A model generated the notes under the pieces. It did not search any database. It saw nothing but the letters and a program-made list of their open reading frames with translations, and had not been told where the DNA came from. DNA of 64,000 bases, taken from the NCBI GenBank assembly GCA_000165345.1, contig CM000433.1, positions 1 to 64,000 of the forward strand. Direction: 5' to 3'. Positions 9,295 through 56,928 of this stretch are shown here, in pieces. A program made the translations under genes and the position numbers. The number at the start of each line of letters is the position of its first letter. Position 1 is the first letter of the stretch.

Positions 9295-10173
9295 CCCAAG
9301 GAAAAAGAAATGAAAAAGTTAAAAAGCTGAATAGAGGTTAAGTTTATGTTGTAATAACAATATTGCGAGTTTGTTCCTTTCTTAATTCAAATTATCATTT
9401 TAAATCAGATTTAATTTTCACACAATGTGGCGCGCATCAAATTACAAAAAATAGTTCGGGCGCAGTGGCTGAAATTGACTTGAAAGTGCATTTTAAAAAA
9501 ATATTAACAAATAATTTCAATTCGGCACAGCTCTTTAGAGTGGAAGCTTTTAATAGAGCTTATATTTGTTAATACTTTGACTTTTTAATTATATCAGCAG
9601 AAATCATACATTATTTGATCTTCGGGACAATTCATTTAATCAGTCCACAATATTATTATTATTAACCATCTTTCACTAGGTAAAAAAAAATAATGCACTA
9701 GAAGTAAACATGATAAAACTAATATTTTAATCCTAAAAAAAATTAAATTTGAAACCATTAAATAAAGGTAGGGATTGAATTAGTCAAAACTCTTAAGCTT
9801 GCTGGAGATAATATTAACAAAGTAAATTAACAAACATAACTAAATTCAGAGAATTAATATGAAAACATTGAAGAAAAGGTAATAATATCACAGGCTATTG
9901 TCTTTTTCTTATTTAATCATCAAGTTGTCGAATAGCTTTAATGCTTAATATTAAATCGGTATATGTTTCTTGGATTAAAGTATCACAATTTTAGAATATC
10001 TGATTTTTCTTTATTTTTAATATTTTCACCCTATTAAACTCGGAATAAACATAATAATTTAGCGGAATGAGCAGATTTGACCCAAAAGATCAAATTTTTC
10101 TAAATCAATAGCGACTTTCGGGATACTTTTTTAAGTATATTGCAAGTTAACAGATTTTATTATTATAGACGGG

Positions 10174-10698
10174 TTAAATTAATCGGTCATCTGAGGAGCT
10201 TAGAATTGGAGTAAATTGTAGGCCATTACTGCCGTTTGGGTCATTGCCCTCGGTGTTTGAGTTAGTTCCAAATCTCCTATTTTCTGGTGAATTTGTTCTA
10301 CTCAATCTTCTTTCATTTGCAGTATATTTCAAAAGACTGGTCTTGCGTCTCTTAGATTTGGAAACATTTTGTTTTCTTCTCGAGACAGAAGTTCTAGCTC
10401 TTAGCTTGCCTAGATTACTTGTTTGACTATTTATTGAATCATTTGAACTATTCACTTTTGAATTCAATGATGTTCGTTGTGCGCCAAGTTGAAATTTGCT
10501 TTCAAATCTCGATTTGACTTTCTCTCCTTCAGTAGTGTGTACCATATCAGTGGTAGGAGATTTTGGAGGGCTAGGCATTCCTTTATTCTTTTTTGAACTT
10601 GATGTAGAATTTTTATTGCTTCTATTTTTCCTCCTTTTAGAGCTTCCTTTCCGGTGAGTTTTAGATTTTAAATTAGAAATACGACTAGTTATTTTTTT
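10174..10698 (-). CDS. Possible frameshifted C-terminal continuation of the 10685-16339 gene (Ser/Lys/Arg-rich, 134+ aa). Alternatively a non-coding ORF.
   Basis: The reading frame is open from 10698 down to 10174. It is offset by one base from the upstream giant ORF. The two frames overlap exactly at an A9 homopolymer (plus-strand T9 at 10692-10700). The composition (SKSKRRKTSLLKY..ANERRLSRTNSPENRRFG) resembles the KSKRKPLT..LLKKH..NRNL repeat units of the giant protein. Confidence 0.3.
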   Translation of the reverse strand, partial: KKITSRISNLKSKTHRKGSSKRRKNRSNKNSTSSSKKNKGMPSPPKSPTTDMVHTTEGEKVKSRFESKFQLGAQRTSLNSKVNSSNDSINSQTSNLGKLRARTSVSRRKQNVSKSKRRKTSLLKYTANERRLSRTNSPENRRFGTNSNTEGNDPNGSNGLQFTPILSSSDDRLI

Positions 10699-13600
10699 TT
10701 ATTTTGGATTCTTTTTTATCTTTTTCTTCTAGTTTATTTAAAAAATAGTTTGAAAGTTTTGTTTCTTCATAATTCACATTCATTGAACTTTCAATATGCG
10801 AAGATAAGTTACTGTCTCCCATATTTGAAGTATTAGTTCTTTCAGGTAGTAAAGATCTGGCTTTCTTTTTTGTCAAATTCATGTTTGAACTAACTAAAGA
10901 TTCACTAGAAAAACTTTTTTTGGGCTCGCCATTTGAATAAGAACCGGATGAAGGTAGAGGATGAGGAAGAGGTCTTTGGCCAAATGGGCCAATGCTAGTC
11001 ATATTTTCTTCATCTTCTTCCTCTTCTTCCTTTTCATCATCTAGATCTGATGAATTTCTTCTATTCAAGTTCTTGTTAGCTCTAGCTTTGCGTTTCTTTA
11101 GTAAATATTCCAATCCTCTCCTAGTTAGAGGCTTTTTTTTACTTTTTGGTTTTGGTAATCGAAAAGAACCTCGGTGTTTTGTTTTAGCAACTGCTGACTC
11201 TAGATTCAAGTCTTCACCCTTTGGTATCGGAGCATGAGATGGAGCTCCGCTAGAAGGGGAAGTGTAAGAATGAGGAGTTGGCGTTGGTGATGGAGAAGGG
11301 CGAGGAGGTAGTGGCGGCGGCAAAGGAGAAGGAGTAGAAGAGGGGGAGACAGAAGGCGATGGAGTTCTATGCCCATTTCTTAAATCTTCATCTTCTAGAT
11401 ATGATGAATTTCTTCTTTCAGAGTTTCTGTTATACCCAGTTCTGTGCTTCTTTAGTAATTCGTGCAAACCTTTCTTAGTTAAAGGCTTATTTTTGCTACG
11501 TGGTTTCACCACTTTAGAATATAATTCTTCTACTGTACTCATTGTTGGTTCTGAAGTCAAGTTTTCATCCTCTTGTGTAGGAACATGGGGTGTAGCTTCA
11601 TCAGAAACGACGGCATAAAAAGGAGAAGGAGGAGGAGAAGGAGGAGGAGAAGGAGGAGGAGGAGGAGGAGGAGGAGGAGGAGGAGGAGGAGGAGGAGGAG
11701 GAGGAGGAGCAGATGAACCGGATGAAGGTGGAGGATGAGGAGGAGTTCTTTTTCCATTTCCAAAACCTCCAGCTCGAGACGAAGAGTTTCTTCTAGTTGT
11801 ATTTTGATTAGTTCCTGTTTTGTGTTTCTCTATTAAATCTCTCAAGCCTCTCCTAGTTAAAGGTTTTCTCTTACTTTTTGGTTCTTTTTGAGAAGAATCT
11901 TGGTGGTTTGTTTTACCAACTGCTGAGTTCAGATTCAAATTTTCATCCTTTTGAGTCGAAATATGAGATGGAATTCTGTTAGATAGAGGGGTATAAGGAG
12001 GAGGAGACGGCGGAGGAGATGGTGGCGAAGAAGGAGGTGGAGGTGGAGGCGGTGGTGGAGGAGAATGAGGAGGCGGCGGTGGAGCAGATGAACCGGATGA
12101 AGGTGGAGGATGAGGAGGAGAAGGAGGTCTTTGGCCAAATGGGCCAATGTTAGTTATAATTTCTTCATCTTCTTCCTCTTCATCATCTAGATCTGATGAA
12201 TTTCTTCTATTCGAGTTCTTGTTAGCCCCAGTTCTGTGTTTTTTTAGTAATTTATCTAAAGCTCTCTTAGTTAAAGGCCTTCTACTACTTTTTGGTCCTA
12301 ATTGAGAAGAGCCCCATTGGCTTGTTTTATCAACTGTTGGGCCCGAATTCCAGTTTTCATTTTCTCTTGTCGGAATATGGGATGGAATTCCGTTAGAGGG
12401 GGAAACATAAGAAGGAGGAGATGGCTTAGGATAAGTCGGTGGTTGAGGGGCAGGAAATGAAGGTGGGGAAGGAATATTAAGGGATGGAGTTCTTTTCTCA
12501 TCTAAACTTTTATCTCGAGACAAAGGATTTCTTCCATTCAGACTTCTGTTAGCTCCAGTTCTGTGTTTTTTTAGTAATTTATCTAAAGCTCTCTTAGTTA
12601 AAGGCCTTCTACTACTTTTTGGTCCTAATTGAGAAGAGCCCCATTGGCTTGTTTTATCAACTGTTGGGCCCGGATTCCAGTTTTCATTTTCTCTTGTCGG
12701 AATATGGGATGGAATTCCGTTAGAAGGGGAAGTATAAGAAGGAGGAGGAGGAGGAGGAGGAGGAGGAGGAGGAGGAGGAGGAGGAGGCGGTGGCGGTGGT
12801 GGAGTAAATGAACCGGATGAAGGTGGAGGATGAGGAGGAGAAGGAGGTCTTTGGCCAAATGGGCCAATGTTAGTTATAATTTCTTCATCTTCTTCCTCTT
12901 CATCATCTAGATCTGATGAATTTCTTCTATTCGAGTTCTTGTTAGCCCCAGTTCTGTGTTTCTTTATTAAATCTTCCAATTCTTTTTTGGTTAAAGGTTT
13001 TCTCTTACTTTTTGGTTCTTTTCGAGGAAAACCTTGGTGGTTTGTTTTACCCATTGTTGGATCTGAAGTCAAATTTTTATCCTTTGGAATCGGAGTATGA
13101 GATGGAGTCCCGCTAGGAATGGAGGGAGGAGGAGGGGCAGGAAATGAAGGCGGAGGAGGAATATTAGGCGATGGAGTTCTTTTTTCATCTCCTAAACTTT
13201 TATCTCGAGACAAAGGATTTCCTCCAGTCAAATTTCTGTTAACTCTAGTTTTGTGTTTCTTTAATAAATCTTCCAAATCTCTCCTAGTTAAAGGCTTTCT
13301 CTTACTTTTTGGTTCTTTTTGAGAAGAATCTTGGTGGTTTGTTTTACCAACTGCTGAGTTCAGATTCAAATTTTCATCCTTTGGAATCGGAGTATGAGAT
13401 GGAGTCCCGCTAGGAATGGAGGGAGGAGGAGGGGCAGGAAACGAAGGCGGAGGAGGAATATTAGGCGATGGAGTTCTTTTTTCATCTCCTAAACTTTTAT
13501 CTCGAGACAAAGGATTTCCTCCAGTCAAATTTCTGTTAGCCCCAGTTCTGTGTTTCTTTAGTAAATCTTCCAATTCTTTTTTGGTTAAAGGTTTTCTCTT

Positions 13601-55944: not shown

Positions 55945-56373
55945 GAAAGCCCATTAAAAATATATATATTTTTATTAGCATTAATTAATTGTTAATTCAA
56001 ATTATATTCATTGTTTGTCTGTATAATGCATTATCTTGAAGCTAAATAAGAGCAATTTACGGCTTTATTTATTTCTATATTAATCTATAATTTTAAAACA
56101 TCTATTTATACTACTTCTACTAAATAGCTTGTTATTTTTGTTCTTTTTTTTAAAAGAAGAGGTTCAAATTTACTTTCACAAATAAATCTAGTTTTCAAAA
56201 TTTATCTAAATTAATGTTAATTACTATCTTTCATTCTAATTTGTTTTCGTTTAGTATCTGAATTTTATAGAAATAATTTATTGTCCAGTTTTTTTTTTCT
56301 ATAAATAACAATTAAAAACAAATCATACTAATATGAATTACTTAAATACATTTATTATCATTTAAAAAAAAAT

Positions 56374-56382
56374 AGGCGCCAA
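56374..56382. promoter_or_regulatory. AGGCGCCAA motif in the spacer upstream of the RPA2-like gene.
   Basis: GGCGCC core, about 550 bp upstream of the 56929 ATG. Confidence 0.25.
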
Positions 56383-56928
56383 TTTTTGACACGTAATATA
56401 TTGATTCAATTAAAAAGAGTTAACAATAAAGTAATCGAATGAGGGGATGGAAAGAGAGGAGAAGAAGAAGGTAAATAAATAAGGTAGAAAGTAAGGAAAG
56501 GAAAAACGAGAAAAAAGGAAATAAAAAGAAAGAAATAGTACTTATGTATGTGTGTGTATGTATGTGTGCATGAAAGGGAATAATAAATAAAATAGGGTTT
56601 TTTTTTCAAAAAAATCAAATATATATAAATAAATTAGATAAGTATTTAGATTATTTTTTTTTAAATTTTGTTTATGGGTTTATTTTGCAGATCAAAAATA
56701 ATTAATTCAATAATTTATTATTTAAATAGATATTTTTCTCGATTTTTTTTTTTAATTTAAAATGAAAAAAATTGACAAATGTGGGGAATTTTAGGTACTG
56801 AAAATTTCAAGAGATTTAAAATTAAGAGAATAAAACAATAGAAAAAAAAACTTTTTTTTTTTTTTAAAAATAATATAACTGTTTTATTAAATATTATATA
56901 ATCTATTAGATAAAAAGTTAAAGTAACA

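Follow-up and report, generated by a model that had tools for sequence, protein, structure and literature searches.

Within an AT-rich stretch of 64,000 nt (positions 1 to 64,000 of contig CM000433.1, called the window below), GC-rich words of the GGCGCC type recur in the spacers between genes. This raised the question of whether the words are survivors of base composition or sites with a function, and, if the latter, which element they represent and what binds it. The organism was identified as Cryptosporidium parvum: seven window proteins were identical to Iowa II/ATCC entries, and the next-ranked relatives of the window PEPC, SNF2 and CDC5 were orthologues in other Cryptosporidium species. 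The initial annotation, made from the sequence alone, had guessed the genus, which was borne out by these exact protein matches down to the species. Two genes found by conservation were added to the gene map, an intron-containing ArfGAP gene (approximately 45074–45794, minus strand) and a small gene (57993–58557, minus strand). The coding versus non-coding tests of the strict core and the broader E2F-like class used this amended map (46.2 kb coding, 17.8 kb non-coding). The GC content of the window was 28.3%, with 30% in coding and 24% in non-coding DNA. The non-coding bias of the sites was thus seen despite coding DNA being the GC-richer compartment.

Enrichment in intergenic spacers

The word GGCGCC occurred six times in the window (16529, 19362, 28937, 34407, 50459 and 56375), exactly at the positions given in the initial annotation and, as claimed there, always outside coding sequence. 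Dinucleotide shuffles contained a mean of 0.28 and a maximum of two copies; none of 100 shuffles reached six. Seven related E2F-type sites listed alongside were also all present: TTTTCCCGCCAAA at 24559, TTGGCGCTGGCGCC at 28929, TTGGCGCGCG at 31001, TTTGGCGG at 37275, TTGGGCGGGAAATT at 49461, TTGGCGCTCAAA at 50497 and, one base off the listed 55057, TTTGCCGCCAAA starting at 55056. Sites beyond that list were found at 9428 (TGGCGCGC), 19692 (TGGCGGC), 28968 (TTGGCGGA), 38849 (GGCGGG) and 46072–46090.

The density of the words was strongly skewed towards non-coding DNA. The strict core [C/G]GCGC[G/C] was found eight times in non-coding and never in coding sequence (binomial p=3.7e-5), and the broader E2F-like class 18 times and five times, respectively (p=7.6e-7); GGCGGG/CCCGCC occurred three times in spacers. 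No strict-core site was present in the AT-rich window ends (1–9 kb and 58–64 kb) or their genes. A de novo ranking of spacer k-mers (k=5, 6, 7 and 8), which assumed no motif, recovered the same type of word near the top, with GCGCC, GGCGCC, GCGCCA, GGCGCCA and GCGCCAA leading after low-complexity A/T words. Observed versus expected spacer counts were 18 versus 2.9 for GCGCC, 6 versus 0.22 for GGCGCC and 11 versus 1.1 for GCGCCA. Second-order Markov expectations were exceeded approximately 10- to 27-fold, and this excess was confined to spacers. Coding counts matched the expectation (GGCGCC, 0 versus 0.34; GCGCCA, 1 versus 1.6). The bias was spacer enrichment, not gene depletion. Both the k-mer comparison and the de novo ranking came out in favor of the claim of the initial annotation. 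Its label "GC islands" was overstated: the sites are isolated elements of 6–12 bp in spacers of 17–31% GC, not the hundreds of bp of raised G+C and CpG that make a GC/CpG island, and the 30+30 nt flanking each site had 8–45% GC, mostly approximately 22%.

Probable promoter positions and conservation in the genus

At least one site was present in 12 of the 14 spacers containing a gene 5' end, and the sites therefore probably mark promoter regions. Distances from site to start codon ranged from approximately 80 to 550 nt. The sites in 5' and divergent spacers, with the strand where one was assigned and the counterparts in other species, were as follows.

9428–9435: TGGCGCGC, E2F-like, 375 nt upstream of the gene at 6771–9053 (minus strand).
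16527–16537: TTGGCGCCTAT, 188–190 nt upstream of the start of the gene at 10685–16339 (minus strand); in C. canis, TTGGCGCCAAAC precedes the orthologue by 206 nt.
19361–19370: TGGCGCCTAA, divergent spacer, 107 nt upstream of the gene at 17291–19255 (minus strand) and 578 nt upstream of centrin (plus strand); in C. ryanae and C. bovis the orthologue is preceded by GGCGCC at approximately 200–210 nt, and the C. canis spacer contains CCCGCCAAAA.
19692–19698: TGGCGGC, weak variant, 248 nt upstream of centrin.
24559–24571, minus strand: TTTTCCCGCCAAA on the plus strand, TTTGGCGGGAAAA on the PEPC sense strand, approximately 354 nt before the PEPC start; C. canis, C. felis and C. ubiquitum carry TTGGCGGGAAA at -378 to -400, and C. 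meleagridis has it as well.
28929–28943: TTGGCGCTGGCGCCC, double site, 114–122 nt upstream of the gene at 29051–30838 (plus strand); C. canis, C. meleagridis, C. ubiquitum and C. felis have double or extended GC cores between -106 and -118, and C. bovis has a GGCGGG at -84.
28968–28975: TTGGCGGA, third site of the same promoter, at -83; C. meleagridis and C. ubiquitum have ATCCGCCAA[TC] at -77/-79.
31001–31010: TTGGCGCGCG, 435 nt ahead of the Rrp6-like exonuclease gene; C. canis, C. meleagridis, C. ubiquitum, C. ryanae, C. bovis and C. serpentis have counterparts between -140 and -446.
37275–37285: TTTGGCGGTAA, CDC5/TRM10 divergent promoter (-250/-187); this spacer carries a site in all seven other species examined there.
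38846–38862, plus strand: ACAGGCGGGACGTACAC, GGCGGG core joined to an ACGT/ACAC block, approximately 419 nt upstream of a C2-domain gene; near-identical versions of the block occur in chipmunk genotype I, C. meleagridis, C. ubiquitum, C. felis and C. ryanae, and GGCGCC is found at -435 in C. muris.
46072–46090: GCGGCAAAGTTTACCGCCA, ArfGAP/SNF2 divergent promoter (about -280/-370); the equivalent spacer holds paired sites in chipmunk genotype I, C. canis, C. meleagridis, C. ubiquitum, C. felis and C. muris.
50457–50468: TTGGCGCCGCAA, first of two sites in the divergent promoter of the genes at 49652–50137 (minus strand) and 50997–54854 (plus strand); conserved in chipmunk genotype I, C. canis, C. 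ryanae and C. muris.
50497–50508: TTGGCGCTCAAA, second site of that promoter, 40 nt from the first; the pair is spaced 40 nt in chipmunk genotype I and 30 nt in C. canis.
55056–55071: TTTGCCGCCAAACGTG, E2F-like half-site fused to ACGTG, approximately 261 nt upstream of the Rdx-family gene; chipmunk genotype I and C. canis have CCGCCATACGTGTCA as the counterpart, and C. ryanae has TTTGGCGGTG.
56373–56384: TAGGCGCCAATT, 554 nt upstream of an OB-fold gene and 431 nt beyond the stop of the Rdx-family gene; GGCGCC is present in the equivalent spacer of chipmunk genotype I, C. canis and C. ryanae.

The site in the CDC5/TRM10 divergent promoter was as first described. The wider proposal that the sites mark likely core promoters appeared to hold for the spacers with a gene 5' end, but the sites at 34407 and 49461 were not upstream of an annotated protein-coding gene. 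Likewise, a position 100–350 bp upstream of a start codon, stated for most sites, applied to approximately nine of the 13 listed, but not to these two, which lie in convergent spacers, nor to those at 31001 (-435) and 56375 (-554). Based on published lncRNA ends assembled from short reads, one 5' end, that of Cp_lnc_202 (plus strand) at 16632, was located approximately 98 nt from the palindromic site at 16529, with the full element at 16527–16537 approximately 95–105 nt upstream of it; this element is a candidate bidirectional promoter element.

Nearly all window sites had a counterpart in the equivalent spacer at a similar distance, with flanks that were largely unalignable. Across 12 syntenic loci in 10 other species, 51 strict spacer sites were counted versus 4.6 expected (simulation maximum, 13). 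At the first nine syntenic loci, [C/G]GCGC[G/C] occurred 26 times in non-coding and once in coding sequence (p=1.5e-13). The site positions persisted in compared genomes spanning 25–43% GC. TGCAT and ACAC/ACACGT words were also observed clustering within 25 nt of E2F-like sites in the window.

The published E2F-like motif and its proposed binding factor

Non-coding GGCG[CG] instances were flanked by T at -2/-1 (19/28 and 17/28) and by A at +6/+7 (13/28 and 19/28), giving the consensus TTGGCGCCAA, beside which an asymmetric variant, TTGGCGGGAA, was found. Coding instances were GGC-GGN glycine-repeat codons without the T/A flanks. This consensus equals the published C. parvum E2F motif TGGCGCCA (motif 3, [C/G]GCGC[G/C]; motif 4, GGCGGG; Oberstaller et al. 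2013, PMC3734150), so that the initial reference to a dominant promoter motif reported in Cryptosporidium was sound. According to PMC3734150, the motif was first noted in chromosome 6 non-coding DNA by Bankier et al. 2003. The same motif has been described upstream of 161 of 200 expression clusters (PMC4117751) and ranked first in sporozoite ATAC-seq peaks (bioRxiv 10.1101/2025.01.17.633476), and the E2F/DP1 motif TTSSCGCCWAA precedes 93 lncRNAs, mostly antisense (PMC7840661). The window agreed with the published family in organism, core and consensus, and non-coding over-representation; it shared the TT...AA flanks, the restriction to upstream non-coding DNA and the near-ubiquity, and nothing essential differed. 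The window sites, which are real, occur far more often than chance allows and are conserved in the genus, are instances of this known C. parvum E2F-like upstream motif.

Genes flanking the sites encode PEPC, centrin, TRM10, CDC5, Rrp6, ArfGAP, an Rdx-family protein and several proteins without a Pfam match. With gene identifiers anchored by mapping two lncRNAs, window genes fell into six of the seven mRNA expression groups (k-means groups, PMC7840661 Table S4). The motif says little about co-regulation because it is nearly ubiquitous, and the suggestion that PEPC, centrin, the RGG-protein and the secreted-island genes share E2F/DP-type regulation was not upheld. Nor did the window targets form a cell-cycle/DNA-replication regulon with coordinated expression.

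We consider it probable that the sites act as the Cryptosporidium E2F-like cis-element, short protein-binding sites in AT-rich intergenic DNA that mark regions of transcription initiation. The window contributes the enrichment, spacer restriction, flank consensus, genus-wide positional conservation and proximity to one lncRNA 5' end; genome-wide over-representation, presence in ATAC-seq peaks and the existence of E2F and DP genes are drawn from the literature. The parasite's winged-helix proteins E2F and DP would, as heterodimers, recognise the [C/G]GCGC[G/C] core, open or maintain accessible chromatin and promote initiation by RNA polymerase II. Given the palindromic core and the many sites in divergent spacers, initiation would often proceed both ways. 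The outputs would be mRNAs and some antisense lncRNAs. Motif similarity suggests E2F/DP as the binding protein, and the sites would presumably activate transcription. Weighing against this reading are the two conserved sites between convergent genes, where no mRNA begins, the wide spread of distances to start codons and the functional diversity of the target genes. Two (or three) E2F and two DP genes have been reported, including cgd1_1560 and cgd6_1430 (E2F) and cgd7_3650 and cgd8_1850 (DP) (PMC3734150, PMC4117751, PMC12246861, bioRxiv 10.1101/2025.01.17.633476); a 2025 review counts two of each and describes most such regulatory components as lacking experimental validation (PMC12246861).

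The sites have the build of canonical E2F/DP sites, a 6-bp CG core with a T-rich 5' side and an A-rich 3' side over approximately 12 bp, as in TTTTCCCGCCAAA at 24559 and TTGGCGCTCAAA at 50497. Canonical sites read TTTSSCGC/TTTSGCGCSAAA, and those of Arabidopsis TTTCCCGCC and TTTGGCGGG, as quoted in PMC3734150. Animal and plant sites have the same sequences, so that TTTTCCCGCCAAA and TTGGGCGGGAAATT at 49461 pass as textbook sites; they are located in promoters, as the window sites probably are, and the palindromic core permits function in either orientation. In contrast, animal and plant sites define a cell-cycle/DNA-replication regulon under pocket proteins, which Cryptosporidium lacks (PMC3734150), and the Cryptosporidium motif precedes most genes, whatever their function or expression timing.

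These differences bear on the alternative that the sites are functional but bound by a factor other than E2F/DP, such as an ApiAP2 or another GC-rich-specific protein, the resemblance being coincidental. We regard this as unlikely. It would fit a motif that precedes genes of every expression profile, unlike classical E2F regulons (PMC3734150 and the window genes), the absence of Retinoblastoma-family partners (PMC3734150), and the fact that E2F/DP binding has never been demonstrated in Cryptosporidium (PMC12246861). However, symmetric [C/G]GCGC[G/C] and asymmetric TTTGGCGGGAAA forms with T- and A-rich flanks are exactly those of canonical E2F/DP sites, and the only apicomplexan genus reported to keep E2F/DP genes is also the one in which the motif dominates (bioRxiv 10.1101/2025.01.17.633476, PMC12246861). 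The ApiAP2 motifs (TGCATGCA, CACACA/GCACAC, G-box) are likewise short words enriched in Cryptosporidium spacers, but differ from the GGCGCC type in sequence class and factor family, and C. parvum AP2 domains assayed on protein-binding microarrays yielded TGCAT, CACACA and the G-box, not an E2F-like motif (PMC4117751).

Sites between convergent genes

Two sites were located in convergent 3'–3' spacers.

34404–34418: TTTAGGCGCCAATTT, 98 nt beyond the stop of Rrp6 and 226 nt beyond that of CDC5.
49461–49474, plus strand: TTGGGCGGGAAATT, 283 nt beyond the stop of SNF2 and 188 nt beyond that of the gene at 49652–50137 (minus strand).

Neither is an mRNA promoter. A site 92–141 nt past the Rrp6 stop was also present in C. 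meleagridis, C. ubiquitum, C. canis and C. felis. For the second, chipmunk genotype I and C. canis had a counterpart (TTTGGCGGGAA) at 185–190 nt from the stop of the orthologue. That such sites at conserved distances form a distinct class, either factor-bound boundaries or roadblocks or dedicated antisense promoters regulating the converging genes, appears quite improbable. Still less probable is the narrower proposal that the factor bound at both sites serves, in a very compact genome, as a boundary or roadblock separating the converging transcription units, and that the sites do not act as promoters. The distances kept past the Rrp6 stop (five species with C. parvum) and the stop of the 161-aa gene (three species) speak for it, as does the location of the sites in the two longest of six convergent spacers (323 and 470 nt versus 23–284 nt); no lncRNA from the 396-lncRNA set of PMC7840661 mapped near 34407. 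Against it, the E2F/DP1 motifs upstream of mostly antisense lncRNAs were already reported, the published antisense lncRNA Cp_lnc_219 (minus strand, 49155 to 48778) begins approximately 310 nt downstream of the 49461 site, and C. ryanae and C. bovis have the Rrp6/CDC5 convergent pair with a spacer of approximately 100 nt and no site.

That the pattern merely reflects base composition or chance and has no function, the GC-rich words being leftovers in AT-rich DNA, has a negligible probability: the single-window numbers are small (6 to 18 sites), but it was refuted by the shuffles (0/100), by Markov counts in excess in spacers only, by the coding versus non-coding test in spacers GC-poorer than genes, and by the cross-species simulation, with spacer positions kept where flanks had diverged beyond alignment and genomes ranged widely in GC.

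The E2F-like element of the window is thus a correct but ordinary finding, because the motif is already published as the most abundant promoter element of the parasite. The local additions of the window are the site-by-site positional conservation in ten other species and the two conserved convergent-spacer sites.

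Sites and genes in the window

Seven proteins of the window were identical to Cryptosporidium parvum entries (Iowa II EAK88xxx, ATCC), so that the genus proposed in the initial annotation was correct and the species is C. parvum itself. After C. parvum, the orthologues of PEPC, SNF2 and CDC5 belonged to C. hominis, C. tyzzeri, C. meleagridis, chipmunk genotype I, C. ubiquitum, C. canis, C. felis, C. ryanae, C. bovis, C. xiaoi, C. muris, C. andersoni and C. serpentis. The gene map was built from long ORFs named via Pfam, and two missed genes were added by comparing spacer peptides with orthologous loci. 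Several window proteins had no Pfam match.

Named and added genes (named via Pfam unless stated)
19940–20476, + strand: centrin
20761–24207, − strand: PEPC
31436–34309, + strand: Rrp6-like exonuclease
34633–37026, − strand: CDC5
37463–38494, + strand: TRM10
39268–45033, + strand: C2-domain protein
~45074–45794, − strand: ArfGAP gene interrupted by two short introns (exons ~45074–45400, 45447–45587, 45615–45794), found by conservation
46455–49181, + strand: SNF2/HARP helicase
55321–55944, + strand: Rdx-family protein
56929–57969, + strand: OB-fold protein
57993–58557, − strand: small two-exon gene, with orthologues of 143–165 aa annotated in C. ryanae and C. muris

The ArfGAP gene, conserved in chipmunk genotype I, C. 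canis, C. ryanae, C. muris, C. meleagridis, C. ubiquitum and C. felis, occupies what the ORF scan shows as an empty 1.4-kb spacer, and its position makes the remaining spacer (45795–46454) a divergent promoter. The small two-exon gene lies only 23 nt from the OB-fold stop and leaves a 144-nt divergent spacer without a strict-core E2F-like site. No E2F-like site was present inside either added gene.

The G+C content of the window was 28.3%. The palindrome GGCGCC occurred six times, at 16529, 19362, 28937, 34407, 50459 and 56375 as first reported, compared with a mean of 0.28 and a maximum of 2 in dinucleotide-preserving shuffles. Six of the seven related sites also had the proposed starts (24559, 28929, 31001, 37275, 49461 and 50497), and the seventh, TTTGCCGCCAAA, starts at 55056 rather than 55057. 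A site was present in 12 of the 14 spacers having at least one gene 5′ end, and some promoters carried two or three (28929/28937/28968, 50457/50497 and 46072/46085). Placement of most sites 100–350 bp upstream of a start held for approximately nine of the 13 (100–360 nt); the exceptions were 31001 (−435), 56375 (−554), and 34407 and 49461, which lie in convergent 3′–3′ spacers. The sites were isolated words of 6–12 bp, and the description of them as GC islands was rejected as a misnomer because the surrounding 60 nt (8–45% GC) was mostly near the 22% background.

Strict-core sites were absent from the AT-rich window ends (1–9 kb and 58–64 kb; 20–24% GC in 1–9000 and 58000–64000), where weaker GGCGG- or CGCCAA-type words occurred at 3815 and 58593. 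The end genes 4444–6174(−), 58702–61959(+) and 62067–63989(−) had no Pfam match and, unlike nearly all intervening genes, no strict-core site in their upstream spacers. A 134-aa ORF at 10174–10578(−), a putative gene only, lies in the 1.6-kb spacer 9054–10684 and contains the word GCGCCAAG (10481). The 25930–27405(−) gene is flanked by unusually long spacers, 24208–25929 (1.7 kb) and 27406–29050 (1.6 kb), in which no peptide was conserved with orthologous loci. The counterpart of the latter in C. serpentis holds a thioredoxin gene that C. parvum apparently lacks.

An E2F-like element enriched in spacers

On the corrected map, the 17.8 kb of non-coding DNA contained eight matches to the core [C/G]GCGC[G/C], and the 46.2 kb of coding DNA contained none (p = 3.7e-5). 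The broader E2F-like class was likewise unequal in density, with 18 non-coding and five coding matches (p = 7.6e-7). This bias held even though coding DNA was the more GC-rich (30.2% versus 23.8%). Unbiased k-mer enrichment in spacers, ranked against a second-order Markov model for k = 5 to 8, also recovered a GGCGCC-type element. At k = 6, after A6, the leading words were GCGCCA (11 versus 1.1 expected), GGCGCC (6 versus 0.22) and CGCCAA (14 versus 2.5); at k = 5, 7 and 8 the best non-low-complexity words were GCGCC, GGCGCCA, GCGCCAA, GGCGCCTA and AGGCGCCA. In coding DNA, GCGCC-type words were at expectation. The pattern is therefore an enrichment in spacers, and depletion of GGCGCC from genes was rejected as its cause. 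Both outcomes named in the initial annotation as refuting it, equal motif density in coding sequence and no GGCGCC-type element from motif discovery on the spacers, were checked, and neither occurred.

The 28 non-coding GGCG[CG] instances, oriented by half-site, gave the consensus TTGGCGCCAA, beside which TTTGGCGGGAAA was named as a candidate E2F-DP target sequence. The 18 coding instances were glycine-repeat codons (GGC-GGN) without the TTGGCGCCAA flanks.

The element of the window is the published E2F-like motif of C. parvum and was already known. No upstream motif of this species is more over-represented than E2F (5′-TGGCGCCA-3′; cores [C/G]GCGC[G/C] and GGCGGG) (Oberstaller et al. 2013, PMC3734150), so the initial appeal to a reported promoter motif was borne out by an identical core. 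According to the same study, Bankier et al. 2003 had seen the E2F motif over-represented in chromosome 6 non-coding DNA, and E2F and DP proteins are encoded by Cryptosporidium but not by other apicomplexans. The motif lies upstream of 161 of 200 co-expression clusters, and AP2 domains recognise TGCAT, CACACA and G-box motifs, not the E2F-like one (Oberstaller et al. 2014, PMC4117751). It also outranks every other motif in prominence across 888 upstream ATAC-seq peaks, over half of which are bidirectional (2025 preprint, bioRxiv 10.1101/2025.01.17.633476). Mullapudi 2007 (PMC1779779) did not name E2F or include PEPC, and its comparative test covered C. hominis only. Experimental validation is still missing for most such components according to a 2025 review (PMC12246861).

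Conservation across Cryptosporidium

The spacers of 12 syntenic loci from ten other Cryptosporidium species contained 51 strict sites, against 4.6 expected (maximum 13 in first-order Markov simulations). In the first nine of these loci, [C/G]GCGC[G/C] had 26 non-coding matches and one coding match (p = 1.5e-13). Sites were conserved in position, spacer by spacer.

Counterparts of window sites in other species
PEPC promoter: TTGGCGGGAAA at approximately −350 to −400 in C. parvum, C. canis, C. felis and C. ubiquitum; present too in C. meleagridis
Promoter of the gene at 29051–30838(+): double core at approximately −110 in five species
Rrp6 promoter: counterpart in seven species, among them the gastric C. 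serpentis
CDC5/TRM10 divergent spacer: counterpart in eight species
Divergent spacer 50.1–51.0 kb: two sites in C. parvum, chipmunk genotype I and C. canis; one site each in C. ryanae and C. muris
Rdx and OB-fold promoters: counterpart in C. parvum and three other species

Outside the closest relatives, the flanks were largely unalignable. Conserved sites within such flanks are the signature expected of constraint on the element itself. In MAFFT alignments of the convergent spacers, the motif shared one column in the closer species only; the C. canis site (SNF2/161-aa gene spacer) and the C. felis site (Rrp6/CDC5 spacer) exist but fall in other columns.

ACGT/ACAC-type words (ACGTACAC, AAACGTGT, GACACGTAA, CCACACGT and AAACACACA) adjoined E2F-like cores, at 38846–38862, 55056–55071, 56375–56397, 19362–19381 and 24563–24577. 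At distances of up to 25 nt from E2F-like sites, ACAC/GTGT, ACACGT and TGCAT were commoner than at randomly chosen positions in spacers (P ~0.002–0.03, uncorrected), and a 17-nt block, ACAGGCGGGACGTACAC, was near-identical in six species. These arrangements suggest possible composite modules of E2F with AP2- or bZIP-type elements.

Convergent spacers, lncRNAs and regulation

The two convergent-spacer sites are the sole part of the pattern that does not follow directly from a promoter element. Their spacers are the longest two of six. The Rrp6 stop is followed after 98 nt by the 34407 site; a site 92–141 nt past this stop is retained in C. meleagridis, C. ubiquitum, C. canis and C. felis, and the spacer of C. 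ryanae and C. bovis is approximately 100 nt long and has none. The distance from the stop of the 161-aa gene to the 49461 site is 188 nt (185–190 nt in chipmunk genotype I and C. canis). Rfam (gathering threshold) and tRNA scans of the whole window found zero structured RNAs, so known structured RNAs do not explain these sites. We probed the lncRNA FASTA and motif table of Li et al. 2021 (PMC7840661), which reports the TTSSCGCCWAA form upstream of 93 lncRNAs, with 11–14-mers from both convergent spacers and the adjoining gene ends.

lncRNAs mapped to the window
Start 4103, + strand: Cp_lnc_201, which, judged by its strand and location, would run antisense to the 4444–6174 gene
5′ end 16632, + strand: Cp_lnc_202, listed as antisense to the 17291–19255 gene
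49155 to 48778, − strand: Cp_lnc_219, antisense to the SNF2 3′ end

Cp_lnc_202 starts approximately 98 nt from the palindrome at 16529, which thus has an mRNA gene on one side and a divergent lncRNA on the other; the original study's 100-nt upstream window clipped this GGCGCC, so it was not scored. Downstream of the 49461 site, 310 nt separate it from the assembled 5′ end of Cp_lnc_219, and a poly-T motif is the only one given for the 100-nt upstream window of this lncRNA (PMC7840661). No lncRNA of that set maps near 34407. The most economical reading of the convergent-spacer sites is that they are antisense or non-coding promoters of this known kind; that they instead act as boundary or roadblock elements is improbable. 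A coding GGCGGG, one of few such words, lies in SNF2 at the annotated 3′ end of Cp_lnc_219 (48789–48794) and is kept as GGCGGGCC in chipmunk genotype I (L006:12344).

Gene identifiers were anchored by two mapped lncRNAs (gene h654 as CPATCC_0021860 and SNF2 as CPATCC_0021960), and the ten intervening genes fit the map. The window's genes fell into k-means groups 2, 3, 4, 5, 6 and 7 of seven (PMC7840661 Table S4), which weakens the proposed common E2F/DP regulation of PEPC, centrin, the 29051 protein and others, and agrees with the report that motif-bearing clusters peak at any time point (PMC3734150). The initial observation is thus confirmed and its reading of identity and taxonomy essentially right; co-regulation and GC islands were over-read. 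Most probably, E2F/DP heterodimers would bind the CG core and, once bound, mark and activate promoters, often in both directions; the sequence-level steps were observed, and we infer binding and activation.

The discovery value is low, since the motif, its non-coding restriction and its E2F assignment were published for C. parvum in 2003–2013 and reinforced by ATAC-seq in 2025. For annotation, the sites serve as markers of promoter regions, some of them bidirectional and at least one belonging to an lncRNA. Individual sites under constraint can be read from the cross-genus footprint, which provides a candidate list for E2F/DP binding and mutagenesis in Cryptosporidium.
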